DNA from: Thermoproteota archaeon
Lineage (GTDB): Archaea; Thermoproteota; EX4484-205; JAAOZO01
Direction of reading: 5' to 3'
Assembly: GCA_041479945.1 (NCBI GenBank)
Contig: JBGOYZ010000001.1
Location: 563-64,562 of the forward strand
DNA: 64,000 nt
In this document: positions 13,656 through 37,018 of the stretch, one piece after another
Layout of the letters: each line of letters begins with the position of its first letter
Numbering within the stretch: the first letter of the stretch is position 1
The notes under the pieces: generated by a model
What the model was told of the DNA's origin: nothing
Databases searched by the model: none
The model's input: the letters and a program-made list of their open reading frames with translations, nothing else
Position numbers and translations under genes: made by a program

Positions 13656-13762
13656 CGCCCCGGCCGGGATTTGAACTCCCGGGTCATAAGACCTCCCGGG
13701 TCTGGCGGGTGATTCGGCTCTATGAACAGCCGCCAATGTTAGCCGGTCTGCACTACCGGGGC
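13656..13762 (-). tRNA. tRNA, intron-containing or atypical (anticodon unresolved; GUU or CAU candidates)
   Basis: Minus-strand sequence GCCCCGG-TA-...-CGGGA-GTTCAAA-TCCCG-(G)-CCGGGGC-G has a 7-bp acceptor stem and a canonical T-arm. A 4-bp variable-arm-like hairpin (GGTC-TTAT-GACC) is present. At 107 nt it needs an intron or extra arm. The TTTAAATAA TATA box is about 27 nt upstream at 13788-13797. Confidence 0.55.
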
Positions 13763-13860: not shown

Positions 13861-14039
13861 GTCCCGCTGTAGCTCAGCCTGGTAGAGCTTCCGAGCCTGT
13901 GAGGGCGAAGATGCTGTAGGTGTCGACCTTGTGTCGATCCGTTCAGCTTACCGGGCTAAAAGCAGAAACCGGATTGTCGCTGGAGGTCGATGACCGGCGA
14001 ATTCAAAAGCCGATGGCTGAAACTCCAGCCGGCGGGACC
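13861..14039 (+). tRNA. tRNA-like element, probably a multi-intron pre-tRNA (identity unresolved)
   Basis: 5' GTCCCGC...TAGCTCAGCCTGGTAGAGC is a perfect D-arm consensus. The 3' end GCGGGAC-C is exactly complementary to the 5' 7-mer. The two are separated by about 150 nt holding several local hairpins and a CTGTGAG loop. Confidence 0.4.
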
Positions 14040-14086: not shown

Positions 14087-14196
14087 GGGCCCGTAGCTCA
14101 GCATGGTAGAGCGCCGGAGATGATGTCGGCGAGGCTTTTAACCCGGGTGTCTCGGGTTCGAAGGAATAATGCTTTCCGGAAGTCCCGACGGGCCCG
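14087..14196 (+). tRNA. tRNA-Lys(UUU) with two non-canonical introns
   Basis: GGGCCCG-TA-GCTCAGCATGGTAGAGC-G-CCGG[AGATGATGTCGGCGAG]G-CTTTTAA-CCCGG-GTGTC-TCGGG-TTCGAA[GGAATAATGCTTTCCGGAAG]T-CCCGA-CGGGCCC-G. Removing a 16-nt insert in the anticodon-stem 5' strand and a 20-nt insert in the T-loop gives a canonical Lys(UUU) tRNA. A TTTTTACATAAA box lies about 27 nt upstream. Confidence 0.8.
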
Positions 14197-17906: not shown

Positions 17907-20900
17907 ATGAGTAGAGAACTAGAAGTAAAGTCGATCGATTCCATAACCTTTGGACTGCTGAGTCCGGCTACCATAAGGAAGATGTCCGTTGTTGAGATAA
18001 CCTCAGAGGAGGTCTACAATGAGGATGGTACTGCTGTGCCTGGAGGCGTGATGGATCTTCGACTTGGAACCATCGAACCCAGCCAACGGTGTCATACCTG
18101 TGGCAACCCCCCGACTCGGTGCCCGGGACACTATGGGCACATTGAGCTTCCAACTCCGATTGTCAATTATCTTTTCGCCAAGGAAATCCACCTCCTTCTG
18201 ACGATCACATGCAGGTCTTGTGGTAGGATACTCCTCCCTGATGAAAAGATCACGGATTATGGACAAGAGATGGCCAGATATCAGAAAGAATTCGGAGCCA
18301 TTCCCAACAAGATCTACTCCCAGATCATCCGGGAGGCAAAACGCATGGCCAGCTGTCCTCATTGTGGCTCCGCTCAATATGTGGTCAAGCCGGTCAAGCC
18401 CGCGGGCTTCTTTGAAGTCACCCCAGAGAAGATCACAACCAAGCTTACCCCAGCTATGGTGAGAGAACGGCTTGATAGGATCCCAGATGATGACCTTGTC
18501 TTGGTGAGGCTCGATCCCGAACTGGGTAGGCCAGAATGGATGGTGTTAGAGGTACTTCCAGTGCCACCAGTGCAGGTTAGGCCCTCGATCATACTTGAAA
18601 CCGGGGAAAGGTCGGAGGATGACCTCACGCACAAGTTGGTTGACATAGTTCGAGCCTCACAGCGCATGAAAGATGCCTTAGAGAGTGGTTCGTCACCCAT
18701 GATCGTCCAAGATTTCGATGAGCTCCTTCAGTATCACGTGACCACGTATCTGGACAACGAGGCCACGGGCGTTCCTCCATCCAGACATAGAACGAACAAG
18801 ATACTGAGGACCCTGTCTCAGAGGTTGAAAGGGAAGGAAGGTAGGTTCAGGAAGAACCTATCGGGGAAGAGGGTGGATTTCTCGGCTAGAACCGTGATAT
18901 CTCCCGACCCGTCGATCGCTGTGGATGAAGTTGGGGTTCCGATAGATGTTGCCATGGAGCTGACTGTCCCAGAGAAGGTCAACCCATTCAACAGAGAGGC
19001 ACTTCTCGCTCTTGTGAAGAACGGGGCATCGAAGTATCCAGGGGTCCGATATGTGATAAGGCCGGACGGCGCTAGGATAAAACTTGAGTTCGTGAAGGAT
19101 CTGGAGGCGTTCGCTGAAAGCGTCGCCGAGGGATTTATCGTCGAAAGACACCTACTTGACGGAGACTACGTTGTTTTCAACCGCCAGCCATCTCTTCACA
19201 GGATCTCGATGATGGGGCACAAGGTACGCGTGCTTCCTGGCAGAACCTTCAGGCTCCACCCCGCTGTCTGTACCCCGTATAACGCTGACTTCGATGGGGA
19301 CGAGATGAACTTACACGTTCCGCAAAGCGTCGAGGCGGTAGCTGAAACCAAGGAACTGCTTCAGGTCATGAAAAACTACATCACGCCCAGATACGGAGCG
19401 CCAATCGTGGGTGCCATAAGAGACTTCGTCACCGGTGCCTATCTGCTGACGCGCTCTGACACGGTTCTCACTAGAAAGGAGTTCTTCATGCTCCTTGAAG
19501 CCGCTGGAGTGGACCGAAACCGCATAGAGTCAGCTATCAAGAAACCGAAAGCGACATGGTCAGGCAAAGAGGCGTTCAGCGCGCTCCTGCCTGCGGATCT
19601 GCACTACAAAACTAGGGCGTCGGTTTGTGCGAACGATCCGAAATGTGACGAGGACAGCTGTCCTCATGAAGGCTTTGTGGTCATAGAAGATGGTGTGTTA
19701 CTGAAGGGAGTAATGGACAAGGCTTCCCTGGGTGCTGAGAAGCCTGCAACCATCATTCACGAAATCCTGTTGAACTACGGTGAAGTAGAGGCCCACAAGT
19801 TCCTGACATCACTCACTCGAATGATATCCACGTTCCTGAAGCTCAGAGGATTCAGTATGACTTACGCTGAACTCATCCTATCTGATCAGGCAAAAGATTG
19901 GATAGAGAGGGATCTCTCATCCGCGGACGACCGCGTGGCCGAGGTCATCTCTCAGTTCAAATCGGGAAAGTTGCAGAAGATACCCGGCCAGTCACAGGAG
20001 GATTCAGTGGAGGCCTACATCATGGACGTGCTCTCTGACATAAGGACCAGAACCGGCGAGTTGGCCAGCAAATCCTTGGGGCTCGACAACAGCGCGGTTG
20101 TGATGACGAGGACCGGTGCTCGGGGTTCCGATCTCAACTTGGGCCAAATGTGTGCGGCACTGGGGCCACAGCAGGTCCGTGGCAAGAGGATCTCAAGGGG
20201 GTATCTCGGGAGACCTCTTCCACACTTCAGGAGAGGAGACATTGGACCTGCTGCTAGGGGATTCATCAAGTCAAGTTACATGACAGGGCTTTCACCGGTT
20301 GAATTCTTCTATCACAGCATGGGAGGGAGAGAGTCATTGGTCGACACAGCTGTAAGGACGCAGCAGAGCGGATACCTCCAAAGGCGTCTGATTCACGCCC
20401 TTGAAACCCTGAAGGTGGAATATGATGGCACCGTGCGGGATCCATACGAGAACATCGTGGAGTTCATCTACGGTGACGATGGTCTGGATCCCGCGAAGAG
20501 CTACCACGGCAAGTTCCCAGTGGAGACGATAATCCGCAAACTCGCCTCATCAATGGACGTCAAGCTCGGTGTCAAGGCTGACAAGGTCGCAATCAGATCG
20601 GCGGTTGCCGCAAGAGTCAAGGACATTCCTCCCCTCATAGCGAAGGAGCTGGAGGGTGCGCTCCTATCACTTGGTGCGGATCCAGCGAGGGCACCGGAGG
20701 TAATCGACGCTACCTTGCGCAGGTATCTTGAGCTCACCGTGGACCCAGGCGAGTCCGTCGGGGTAATAGCGGCCCAGTCAATTGGTGAACCCGGGACGCA
20801 AATGACACTCCGAACCTTCCACTACGCCGGCATAAAGGAGGCCAACGTAACGCTGGGCCTTCCTAGGCTAATAGAGCTCTTGGACGCGAGAAGGATTCCC

Positions 20901-21734
20901 AAGACGCCATTGATGGAAGTTCATCTCTCCCCGGAGTATCGCGAGGATCAAAAGGAGGTTCTCAAAATCGCTAGGAGGATGCCATACACCTCTGTTGAAG
21001 ACATCGCCTCTGAAATCAAGATTCAGCAGTTCAAATCCGTGATAACCATAGGACTCTCAAAAGAAATGATGGTGGAGAGAGGGGTAACTCCGAAGAAGCT
21101 CCAGAGGAGTCTGATCGAAGCCGGCTTTAGACCCAGAAGGGAAAAGAAATTCGAGATCTCAATCACTGTCAAGGATTCTGAGGGAGACCTTACTCCGGTC
21201 GTCGACAAACTGAGAAAGGTTCCAGTCTCCGGCTTGTCGTCTGTTTCTAGGGTCACAGTCCGGGAAAAGGACGGCGAGTGGGTCATATTCACGGAGGGAT
21301 CCAATCTGATGGAAGCCTTGAAGATGCCAGAGGTTGACAAGACCCGGGTATTCACAAACAACATTCACGAGATCGGCGAAGTCCTAGGAATAGAGTCGGC
21401 CAGGACTGCCTTGGTCAAGGAGCTGAAAGACACTCTGGAGGAGCAAGGGCTTGATGTTGATATCAGGCACATAATGTTAGTGGCGTCCGCGATGACTACC
21501 TCCGGAAGGGTCAAACAGATAGGTAGGCACGGTCTCTCAGGAGAAAAAGTGAGTGTGCTGGCTAAGGCCGCGTTCGAGAGGACCATTCCCACACTAGTGG
21601 AGGGTGCCATCACCGGTTCAACAGATCACATGAGAGGAATGACTGAACGTGTCCTTGCAGGCGAGGAGATCAAAGCTGGGACAGGCATGATCGACGTGTA
21701 TGTCGATCTTAGGAAAGGTTTAACTCAACAATAA
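17907..21734 (+). CDS. rpoA: DNA-directed RNA polymerase subunit A, fused A' plus A''
   Basis: 1275-aa continuous ORF. It contains the RpoA' N-terminal zinc motifs, the NADFDGDEMN active-site motif, and the RpoA'' trigger-loop region GESVGVIAAQSIGEPGTQMTLRTFHYAG, all in one frame with no stop or frameshift. Confidence 0.9.
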   Translation: MSRELEVKSIDSITFGLLSPATIRKMSVVEITSEEVYNEDGTAVPGGVMDLRLGTIEPSQRCHTCGNPPTRCPGHYGHIELPTPIVNYLFAKEIHLLLTITCRSCGRILLPDEKITDYGQEMARYQKEFGAIPNKIYSQIIREAKRMASCPHCGSAQYVVKPVKPAGFFEVTPEKITTKLTPAMVRERLDRIPDDDLVLVRLDPELGRPEWMVLEVLPVPPVQVRPSIILETGERSEDDLTHKLVDIVRASQRMKDALESGSSPMIVQDFDELLQYHVTTYLDNEATGVPPSRHRTNKILRTLSQRLKGKEGRFRKNLSGKRVDFSARTVISPDPSIAVDEVGVPIDVAMELTVPEKVNPFNREALLALVKNGASKYPGVRYVIRPDGARIKLEFVKDLEAFAESVAEGFIVERHLLDGDYVVFNRQPSLHRISMMGHKVRVLPGRTFRLHPAVCTPYNADFDGDEMNLHVPQSVEAVAETKELLQVMKNYITPRYGAPIVGAIRDFVTGAYLLTRSDTVLTRKEFFMLLEAAGVDRNRIESAIKKPKATWSGKEAFSALLPADLHYKTRASVCANDPKCDEDSCPHEGFVVIEDGVLLKGVMDKASLGAEKPATIIHEILLNYGEVEAHKFLTSLTRMISTFLKLRGFSMTYAELILSDQAKDWIERDLSSADDRVAEVISQFKSGKLQKIPGQSQEDSVEAYIMDVLSDIRTRTGELASKSLGLDNSAVVMTRTGARGSDLNLGQMCAALGPQQVRGKRISRGYLGRPLPHFRRGDIGPAARGFIKSSYMTGLSPVEFFYHSMGGRESLVDTAVRTQQSGYLQRRLIHALETLKVEYDGTVRDPYENIVEFIYGDDGLDPAKSYHGKFPVETIIRKLASSMDVKLGVKADKVAIRSAVAARVKDIPPLIAKELEGALLSLGADPARAPEVIDATLRRYLELTVDPGESVGVIAAQSIGEPGTQMTLRTFHYAGIKEANVTLGLPRLIELLDARRIPKTPLMEVHLSPEYREDQKEVLKIARRMPYTSVEDIASEIKIQQFKSVITIGLSKEMMVERGVTPKKLQRSLIEAGFRPRREKKFEISITVKDSEGDLTPVVDKLRKVPVSGLSSVSRVTVREKDGEWVIFTEGSNLMEALKMPEVDKTRVFTNNIHEIGEVLGIESARTALVKELKDTLEEQGLDVDIRHIMLVASAMTTSGRVKQIGRHGLSGEKVSVLAKAAFERTIPTLVEGAITGSTDHMRGMTERVLAGEEIKAGTGMIDVYVDLRKGLTQQ

Positions 21735-35484: not shown

Positions 35485-35542
35485 GTGGATGCTTCCACTG
35501 TAGGGAAAACAGATAAAAACGCTTAGTCAAGCGCCAAAGTCA

Positions 35543-35656
35543 GGGCCCGTAGCTCAGCATGGAAGAGCAGCAGATGTCGGGCTAGCTGATGCTCTTAACC
35601 TGATGGTCACGGGAATGGAATCCCGCCAGAAATGGGTTCAAATCCCATCGGGCCCG
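35543..35656 (+). tRNA. tRNA with multiple non-canonical introns, probably tRNA-Lys(CUU)
   Basis: GGGCCCG-TA-GCTCAGCATGGAAGAGC...CTCTTAA...CCCGC-CAGAA-ATGGG-TTCAAAT-CCCAT-CGGGCCC-G. The acceptor, D-arm and T-arm are canonical. A CTCTTAA Lys(CUU)-type anticodon loop is visible, but about 40 extra nt sit in and around the anticodon arm. The first insert (AGATGTCGG...) resembles intron 1 of tRNA-Lys(UUU) at 14117-14132. Confidence 0.65.
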
Positions 35657-35950: not shown

Positions 35951-37018
35951 ATGCAGGACGAGGTCAGAACCGCTCTAGCGGCGAAAGTACCCCTAGAGAG
36001 AGGTGAGCACGTAAGAACGCTCCTCAAGGATCTGGGGGCTGTCGATCTGGATCTCGCGCCTGCAGTTGAGGGGAAGTACCTCTTGGTTCCAGTACTGAAT
36101 CCTCAAAGACTCGAGGAAAATGCCGAACTACATCTGCTGGAACTGGTCGAACGCAAGCTGAGGGTGAACCATCGTAGGCCAAGGAGTGTAAAGGAGGCCC
36201 TTCTTGGGAATCTTCAACCTGACATAGTGGGTCAGATCACAAAATCCTTCGACATCATAGGTGATGTGGCAGTGGTCTCCACCAAGGAAAGGATGTCGAG
36301 GTACAGAGAAAACGTGGTGAATGCGTTGCTTTCGGTTCACCCAAACATACGGCTGATCTTGGCCAAAGTTGCTCCGGTTTCAGGGGTTGAACGGGTAGCT
36401 TCATACGAACGATGGTACGGGTCAGGCACGACGGAAACACTGCACAGAGAACACGGCTGCGTCTACGGTTTGGACGTGACCAAGGTGTTCTTCACCCCTC
36501 GACTGTCAACGGAGAGAAAGCGGGTGGCATGCCTCGTTGAACCGAACGAGACTGTATGTGACCTCTTCGCCGGCGTAGGCCCATTCTCGGTGCTCATAGC
36601 CAGACTGCAACCCTCCTCGCACGTCAAGTCCTGTGACATCAGTCCTGAGGCTGTCACCTATTTGAAGAGGAACGTACGACTCAACGGAGTATCCGACAGG
36701 GTCGAGATCTTCCAAGGGGATGCTGCGCAGGTATCGCACAAGTTCCTGAGAGGTTTGTGTGACAGAGTGGTGATGAACCTGCCCAAACAGGCTGAACTGT
36801 ACTTGGCAGCAGCTACAGAGGCGCTCAGGGCCCGGGGGGGAACAATACACCTCTATCTGTTCCGGAAGGCCCCCCAAACCTTCGAGGAGAGGATCTCGCG
36901 CGCGACGGCTGGACTCGAATCGCTGGGTTGGAAAGATGTGGAGGTTTCATTTCACAGGAGAGTCCGCGAGATAGGTCCAAGAGAGTTCAACGAAGTCGCA
37001 GACATGAAGGTGTCATGA
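35951..37018 (+). CDS. trm5: tRNA (guanine37-N1)-methyltransferase Trm5 family (Trm5/Taw-like)
   Basis: Class I MTase: DLFAGVGPFSVLIA, DISPEAVTYLKRNVRLNGV, VVMNLP (NLP motif). Confidence 0.75.
   Translation: MQDEVRTALAAKVPLERGEHVRTLLKDLGAVDLDLAPAVEGKYLLVPVLNPQRLEENAELHLLELVERKLRVNHRRPRSVKEALLGNLQPDIVGQITKSFDIIGDVAVVSTKERMSRYRENVVNALLSVHPNIRLILAKVAPVSGVERVASYERWYGSGTTETLHREHGCVYGLDVTKVFFTPRLSTERKRVACLVEPNETVCDLFAGVGPFSVLIARLQPSSHVKSCDISPEAVTYLKRNVRLNGVSDRVEIFQGDAAQVSHKFLRGLCDRVVMNLPKQAELYLAAATEALRARGGTIHLYLFRKAPQTFEERISRATAGLESLGWKDVEVSFHRRVREIGPREFNEVADMKVS

Follow-up and report, generated by a model that had tools for sequence, protein, structure and literature searches.

The tRNA-Lys(CUU) gene and its surroundings

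Positions 35543–35656 on the forward strand of the window, by which we mean the whole 64-kb stretch of DNA that was analysed, very probably hold a functional gene for tRNA-Lys(CUU), in which two BHB introns at tRNA positions 30/31 and 48/49 interrupt a product of 74 nt; the host is an uncultured archaeon of the Thermoproteota (TACK). Gene content marks the window as archaeal, with rpoB, an unsplit rpoA, FttA, FEN1 and Trm5 among its archaeal genes. Just as the original prediction had described, the sequence itself displays an acceptor stem (GGGCCCG/CGGGCCC), a D arm, a T arm (ATGGG-TTCAAAT-CCCAT) and the loop CTCTTAA. Rfam model RF00005 matches the gene end to end with 41.4 bits, compared with a gathering score of 29, and its alignment inserts 53 nt at 13 model positions in the anticodon-arm region. 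ARAGORN in its standard mode finds no tRNA anywhere in the 64-kb window, this precursor included, and when run with -i, its intron option, it mistakes the precursor for a tRNA-Ser(gga) with a 40-nt intron. When the spliced 74-mer is submitted, it reports tRNA-Lys(ctt). The Rfam match and the ARAGORN call on the spliced form together bear out the earlier identification of an intron-laden tRNA-Lys(CUU) gene. Removal of both introns leaves a canonical cloverleaf with a sensible anticodon, the same as in intron-free relatives, and its cloverleaf score is 27, the top score of the scheme being 28, which is reached by the spliced tRNA-Lys(UUU) of the same window. A split or permuted tRNA gene is excluded, as the three exons are collinear within 114 nt.

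A conserved block upstream of the gene, GAAAACAGATAAAAAC (35505–35520, forward strand), resembles a BRE/TATA-type promoter in position and composition. The TATA-like string ATAAAAA within it (35513–35519) is centred ~27 nt upstream of the tRNA 5′ end. The block is nearly invariant at the six orthologous loci, with a single A-to-G change in L003, and it is intact in L009, the most distant ortholog, where its intergenic flanks have diverged.

Directly downstream, after a gap of 295 nt, lies a gene for a Trm5/TYW2-family tRNA methyltransferase (35951–37018, forward strand). The linkage of this gene to tRNA-Lys(CUU) is conserved in L001–L007 and L009; no functional link between the two is evident, because tRNA-Lys has A37. 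Elsewhere in the window, RNA polymerase subunit A (17907–21734, forward strand) is a single unsplit ORF of 1275 aa with Rpb1 domains 1–5. This subunit is split into A′ and A′′ in many archaea, and the unsplit form is a possible taxonomic marker by which the lineage might be placed.

Two introns framed by BHB motifs

Splice sites were sought by a BHB rule in which each strand consists of a 4-nt central-helix strand followed by a 3-nt bulge that is cut after its second nucleotide. A brute-force solver ran over all combinations of BHB candidates and ranked them by the quality of the resulting cloverleaf. Its top solution for tRNA-Lys(CUU) places introns at gene positions 32–48 and 67–89, and both introns of the tRNA-Lys(UUU) gene (30/31 and 59/60) were recovered by the same search. 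Exactly 40 nt (17 + 23) are predicted to be excised, in agreement with the estimate of about 40 nt made earlier.

Exon 1 (35543–35573, forward strand, as are all parts of the gene) comprises tRNA positions 1–30, namely the 5′ strand of the acceptor stem, the D arm, A26 and the GCAG of the anticodon stem, and is delimited by the Rfam match, the BHB scan and the solver. It is followed by intron 1, ATGTCGGGCTAGCTGAT (35574–35590, 17 nt, gene positions 32–48), which lies at 30/31 according to both the strict BHB scan and the solver. This is the sole strong strict BHB in the gene when all four central pairs are required. Its hBHBh′ motif has a central helix of CAGC (35568–35571) with GCTG (35585–35588) in which 4/4 positions pair, the bulges AG|A and AT|G, an outer helix of 5 bp (AAGAG with CTCTT) and an inner helix of 2 bp. 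Among the relatives, the central helix carries an A.C mismatch in L003/L004 and an A.A mismatch in L009. The insert had been thought to start with AGATG; with the predicted cut it begins with ATG, the preceding AG being exonic (tRNA positions 29–30).

Exon 2 (35591–35608, tRNA positions 31–48) contains G31, the loop CTCTTAA with the anticodon CTT at 35594–35596, the stem strand CCTGA and the variable loop TGGTC; it is invariant in the six orthologs and agrees with the intron-free relatives. Intron 2, ACGGGAATGGAATCCCGCCAGAA (35609–35631, 23 nt, gene positions 67–89), is placed at 48/49 by the solver, the orthologs and the relatives. Its central helix, ATGG (35603–35606) with CCAG (35626–35629), has three of four standard pairs (U62-A86, G63-C85 and G64-C84) and the mismatch A61.G87. 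With the bulges TC|A and AA|A, an inner hairpin of 5 bp (CGGGA-loop-TCCCG) and an outer helix of 6 bp (AACCTG with TGGGTT), the motif is a slightly relaxed hBHBh′. The A.G mismatch is present in five of the six orthologs; G87T in L005/L006 converts it to an A-T pair, which leaves 4/4 paired in L005. Relaxed motifs are described as usual in archaea with broad-specificity endonucleases (PMC4090602, PMC5829648). A cut at 49/50 rather than 48/49 would give the identical product, owing to a repeated A. Exon 3 (35632–35656, tRNA positions 49–73) provides the T arm ATGGG-TTCAAAT-CCCAT, the 3′ strand of the acceptor stem CGGGCCC and the discriminator G; it is covered by the Rfam match and invariant in the orthologs. 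CCA is not encoded in the gene.

The outer helices of both BHB motifs borrow D-stem or T-stem strands of the mature tRNA. Therefore, either the precursor needs a fold other than the cloverleaf or the enzyme accepts the motif without its outer helix. The full BHB folds of the precursor, at -30.6 to -34.8 kcal/mol, are less stable than the unconstrained MFE structure at -44.9 kcal/mol (37 °C).

The direct repeat CTGATG, which had been noticed on both sides of the anticodon loop, with the question whether it marks splice sites, does exist, at 35586–35591 and 35600–35605. The answer is yes for one copy of the two. The first consists of the CTG of the central-helix strand, the bulge AT and G31, and contains the predicted 3′ splice site of intron 1 (CTGAT|G), whereas the second, C40-U41-G42-A43-U44-G45, is purely exonic. 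CTG recurs in the two copies because each of them pairs with the CAGCAG run in exon 1. In the orthologs the first copy reads CTGAGG, CTGAAG or CAGAGG; the repeat is not conserved and is therefore incidental. A C/D-box sRNA within intron 1 was also considered and rejected: the intron has only 17 nt, its CTGA is made up of BHB central helix and bulge and varies (CAGAG in L009), and the second CTGATG is exonic. Rfam reports no C/D family at this locus.

Conservation in orthologs and intron-free relatives

Homologs of the neighbouring Trm5 protein with 99, 90, 84, 79, 78, 63 and 59% identity and lower were found, nearly all of them metagenomic. The few with names are labelled ‘Thermoproteota archaeon’ or, more distantly, Bathyarchaeia, Brockarchaeota and Nitrososphaerota. 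Synteny with an orthologous tRNA gene at the same place was seen at L001/L002, L003/L004, L005/L006, L007 and L009. No tRNA was found upstream of the Trm5 homologs P0012 (63%) and P0015 (48%) at L008 and L010, where synteny ends. Both inserts are kept in all six syntenic orthologs, whose neighbouring Trm5 proteins are 59–90% identical.

An alignment of the six distinct orthologs has 18 variable columns, 17 of them among the 40 intron columns and one among the 74 exon columns (Fisher P = 1.7e-8). The exon columns are thus nearly fixed and the intron columns free to vary, as expected under purifying selection. The sole exon variant is G28A in L003/L004. Nine of the 17 columns of intron 1 vary, and in intron 2 the hairpin has a variable loop on an invariant stem. 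There is one compensatory change, at the intron 1 inner-helix pair 33-42. The covariation statistics of the BHB helices, with 81 of 500 shuffles reaching the observed score, say little because nearly all pairs are invariant.

The shared 5′ exon was used to scan GTDB genomes, and 110 stretches were returned. Among the GTDB representatives matched there were only more distant relatives and none of the host's own lineage. Five of the genes, L119, L019, L053, L059 and L071, are intron-free Lys(CUU) genes that read GCAGG-CTCTTAA-CCTGA-YGGYC and continue into a T stem of 5 bp; the exact string GCAGG-CTCTTAA-CCTGA-TGGTC occurs in L119 and near-identical ones occur in the other four. Since this architecture is shared, the mature tRNA here should read ...GCAGG CTCTTAA CCTGA TGGTC ATGGG..., that is, ...GCAG|GCUCUUAACCUGAUGGUC|AUGGG... 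across the predicted junctions, with the anticodon stem GCAGG/CCTGA and a G27.A43 mismatch. Removal of intron 2 restores a 5-nt variable loop and a 5-bp T stem, as in the intron-free relatives. In the host lineage and in several other MAGs of Thermoproteota, Brockarchaeota and Nitrososphaerota (L019, L053, L059, L071 and L119), the anticodon stem carries the G27.A43 mismatch at its top; L003/L004 have A27.A43 at this place.

These comparisons bear on how the gene should be parsed. The original prediction had closed the anticodon stem as GCGGG/CCCGC by excising two or three pieces around the anticodon arm; written out as three short pieces (gene positions 30–36, 40–49 and 57–79), it gives a perfect 5-bp stem, and ARAGORN accepts the resulting 74-mer as tRNA-Lys(ctt). 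The GGG that this stem requires (columns 37–39) varies among the orthologs, however, reading GGG, GCG, GGA or TGT. Six variable columns would become exonic, all three G's included; for the two other parses that were discarded, the number is two or three. Inserts of 7 and 10 nt are too short for a BHB, no BHB candidate lies at the junctions, and no intron-free relative combines GCGGG...CCCGC and a CAGAA variable loop with this tRNA body. Hardly any credence can be given to such a parse. The actual stem is GCAGG/CCTGA, as in the intron-free relatives, and the GGG lies in intron 1; there are two introns, one of them not around the anticodon arm but where the variable loop meets the T stem. An intron at gene positions 61–83 (23 nt, with the 3′ strand of the stem formed by CCTG+C) was rejected as well, given that no BHB lies at its junction, that the variable columns 87 and 89 would be left exonic and that the relatives read CCTGA-TGGTC.

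A subtler choice concerns the exact cut of intron 2. The only register initially found for this intron by the strict scan was 67|68 with 88|89, which would leave intron 1 as above and yield a tRNA of 76 nt whose variable region, UGGUCAA, has 7 nt. In favour of this register, its inner helix has 4 bp, its four central pairs (TGGT with GCCA) are all standard or wobble, and ARAGORN accepts the 76-mer. It lacks an outer helix, though, it makes the variable column 89 (A to T in L009) exonic, and its product is unlike all intron-free relatives, in which the variable loop has 5 nt. The register 66|67 with 89|90, in contrast, offers an outer helix of 6 bp, an inner helix of 5 bp and, in L005, 4/4 central pairs. 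The shifted register was dropped after the comparison with relatives and orthologs, and we regard it as improbable. Finally, could the whole locus be a decaying pseudogene that carries unspliced junk insertions? Failure of ARAGORN on the precursor and the 53 nt that Rfam must skip would fit such a view. Yet 73 of the 74 exon columns are invariant while the neighbouring protein falls to 59% identity and the inserts vary, the BHB motifs are maintained around both inserts, and promoter block and synteny are conserved, all of which makes decay exceedingly improbable.

Proposed splicing pathway

What the analysis shows directly are the BHB motifs, the sequence of the mature tRNA and the way in which the columns vary among the orthologs; the following pathway, including its enzymes, the order of splicing, the excision of the introns and the exact cut sites, is predicted. 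The gene would be transcribed from its own BRE/TATA-type promoter. At 30/31, the central helix of 4 bp would arise between GCUG at the 3′ end of intron 1 and the exon 1 nucleotides C25-A26-G27-C28, and the outer helix between the 3′ strand of the D stem and the anticodon loop. At 48/49, the 3′ end of intron 2, CCAG, would pair with A43-U44-G45-G46; the intron hairpin would serve as the inner helix, and the 3′ strand of the anticodon stem would form the outer helix with the 5′ strand of the T stem. The archaeal splicing endonuclease, which is expected to be of the broad-specificity type in this phylum, would cut each 3-nt bulge after its second nucleotide. The three exons would then be joined by an RtcB-type ligase to yield the 74-nt tRNA.

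Relation to the intron of tRNA-Lys(UUU)

The gene used for comparison, tRNA-Lys(UUU), is located at 14087–14196 (forward strand). It has two introns with strict BHB motifs that were also found by the solver: AGATGATGTCGGCGAG (14118–14133, 16 nt, forward strand) at 30/31, with the central helix CGCC/GGCG, and GGAATAATGCTTTCCGGAAG (14163–14182, 20 nt, forward strand) at 59/60. ARAGORN identifies its spliced 74-mer as tRNA-Lys(ttt). The gene was found on eight metagenome contigs, and all differences among them are intronic.

The first insert of tRNA-Lys(CUU) had been said to sit at the position equivalent to that of tRNA-Lys(UUU), in the 5′ strand of the anticodon stem, and the BHB scan and the solver indeed place both at 30/31. 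As for the sequence likeness that had been reported, the two 30/31 introns have an 8-mer, GATGTCGG, in common (35573–35580 and 14122–14129, the first G being exonic in the CUU gene). It is only nominally above chance, with a shuffle P of 0.006–0.018 for an observation that was chosen post hoc.

Does this likeness mean that the two genes inherited the intron, or that they exchanged it, as had been suggested? In an exchange, the genes would recently have traded the intron or taken up the same mobile intron by transposition or gene conversion, and GATGTCGG would be the trace of this event. The common position 30/31, the similar lengths of 17 and 16 nt and the shuffle P for the common 8-mer are in keeping with such an event, and for Thermoproteales it has been proposed that introns move by transposition from one tRNA gene to another (Fujishima 2010, as cited in PMC4090602 and PMC4033280). 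However, the identity is limited to 8 nt in a match selected post hoc. Counted from the 5′ splice site, the 8-mer lies 5 nt out of step between the two genes, and it plays different structural roles, forming bulge, inner helix and loop in the CUU gene and loop, inner helix and central helix in the UUU gene. The 3′ ends of the introns are each tuned to their own diverged exons, GCTG to CAGC in the CUU gene and GGCG to CGCC in the UUU gene. In Ga0315296_10000001 and Ga0172362_10000007, the two other genomes where both Lys genes could be paired, the longest string common to the two introns drops to 6 nt and 5 nt, respectively, part of it being flank. The 30/31 intron of the neighbouring tRNA-Tyr has no such similarity. 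Differences between the mature Lys(CUU) and Lys(UUU) tRNAs extend over the whole of the anticodon stem, variable loop and T arm, so that the two are not recent duplicates. Nor do the introns make up a shared family of the Fujishima type, as only GATGTCGG is common to introns of 17 and 16 nt. Taken together, the sequence match is weak evidence and a recent exchange between the two Lys genes is unlikely. The shared position, the similar length and the BHB design favour the other half of the suggestion, and most likely reflect an origin in common, probably an old one, or alternatively a site whose structure favours insertion.

Other interrupted tRNA genes in the window

Further tRNA genes were found by a custom scan for an acceptor stem together with a D arm. 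In all, the 64-kb window contains four tRNA genes, every one of them interrupted, with a total of 10 introns. The Lys(UUU) gene and a tRNA-Asp(GUC) gene are not recovered by Rfam at E ≤ 1 over the whole window, and neither is reported by ARAGORN. The tRNA-Asp(GUC) gene (13656–13762, reverse strand, 107 nt) has two introns according to the solver, at gene positions 37–50 (14 nt, in the anticodon loop) and 69–87 (19 nt, at 53/54), and its D stem is poor (GTGC/ACAT).

The tRNA-Tyr(GUA) gene (13863–14037, forward strand, 175 nt) apparently has four BHB introns, each with 4/4 pairs in the central helix. They are located, all on the forward strand, at 30/31 (13894–13912, 19 nt), 37/38 (13920–13967, 48 nt), 53/54 (13984–14001, 18 nt) and 59/60 (14008–14023, 16 nt). 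ARAGORN reads the spliced 74-mer as tRNA-Tyr(gta). In the orthologs L122/L128, L124 and L125 all substitutions are intronic, and L127 is identical to the window. According to the tRNAscan-SE 2.0 paper (PMC8450103), archaeal tRNA genes contain up to three introns. A tRNA-Tyr with four may exceed this reported maximum, and is more unusual than the neighbouring tRNA-Lys(CUU).

ARAGORN does not see genes like tRNA-Lys(CUU) at all, and Rfam sees only half of them. As a consequence, tRNA-Lys, tRNA-Tyr and tRNA-Asp would be counted as absent from MAGs of this lineage, whose apparent completeness is thereby lowered.

Comparison with known systems

Multiple non-canonical BHB introns in tRNA genes of TACK archaea are already established, and the known mechanism is unchanged by the tRNA-Lys(CUU) gene. 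They have been described in Thermoproteales and in other Crenarchaeota and Thaumarchaeota (Marck & Grosjean 2003; Sugahara 2007/2008; reviewed in PMC4090602, PMC4033280 and PMC8450103). Like the introns of the Thermoproteales type, those of tRNA-Lys(CUU) are short, framed by BHB motifs, located outside 37/38 and at least two per gene in a TACK host. Introns of that type also recur at sites including 30/31 and 59/60, and the genes that carry them are missed by generic tRNA finders. Three points set the present gene apart, one of them being the high density of introns in its surroundings, where all four tRNA genes of the window are interrupted. The host belongs to an uncultured lineage of Thermoproteota and not to Thermoproteales, so that a further TACK lineage joins the organisms with dense non-canonical tRNA introns. 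The second intron, at 48/49, lies outside the positions given in the pertinent part of a review (PMC4090602), and a 48/49 intron was not seen in the 104 other Lys-type genes scanned.

An intron at 30/31 of the same design is present in ten other Lys genes (L022, L026, L033, L037, L056, L079, L087, L102, L114 and L116), whose hosts are Aenigmatarchaeota, Thermocladium, Thermoproteus and uncultured archaea. As in tRNA-Lys(CUU) here, the 3′ end of these introns is complementary to exon positions 25–28 and is followed by an A-N bulge and G31; most of them start with A, and they often stand alongside an intron at 59/60 or in the variable region. Their sequences, in contrast, are unrelated to that of intron 1 save for the 3′ end dictated by the exon, their lengths range from 13 to 23 nt, and none is accompanied by an intron at 48/49. 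The set of orthologs of the present gene allows the turnover of such very short BHB introns to be followed.

A separate observation from the same scan concerns long Lys(UUU) introns at the canonical site (L022, L033, L079, L087, L093, L094, L117 and L026), from Aenigmatarchaeota and uncultured archaea, which share the motif GCTAAAAGCTTTGAT...GATGAAAG. It contains C- and D-box-like strings and may represent a conserved intron-encoded small RNA.

A broader scenario can be offered tentatively, although we consider it rather doubtful. The 10 introns in four tRNA genes, the 48/49 site and the four-intron tRNA-Tyr might reflect a lineage-wide burst of tRNA introns at least equal to that of Thermoproteales, and the 30/31 intron of Lys(CUU), Lys(UUU) and tRNA-Tyr might be an old, vertically inherited discontinuity of tRNA-Lys, the same one that is split in Nanoarchaeum and Staphylothermus.

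Position 30/31 is known both as an intron site and as a split site in tRNA genes (PMC4090602, PMC3218864). The split tRNA-Lys(CUU) genes of Nanoarchaeum equitans and Staphylothermus marinus/hellenicus are joined at exactly this position (Chan et al. 2011, PMC3218864). The gene described here has the same isoacceptor identity, the same position of the discontinuity and a BHB at the junction. Unlike in those organisms, where two genes are trans-spliced, the parts are contiguous and are separated by a 17-nt cis intron. The tRNA-Lys(CUU) gene of this archaeon is thus a cis-intron counterpart to the tRNA-Lys(CUU) genes that are split at 30/31.
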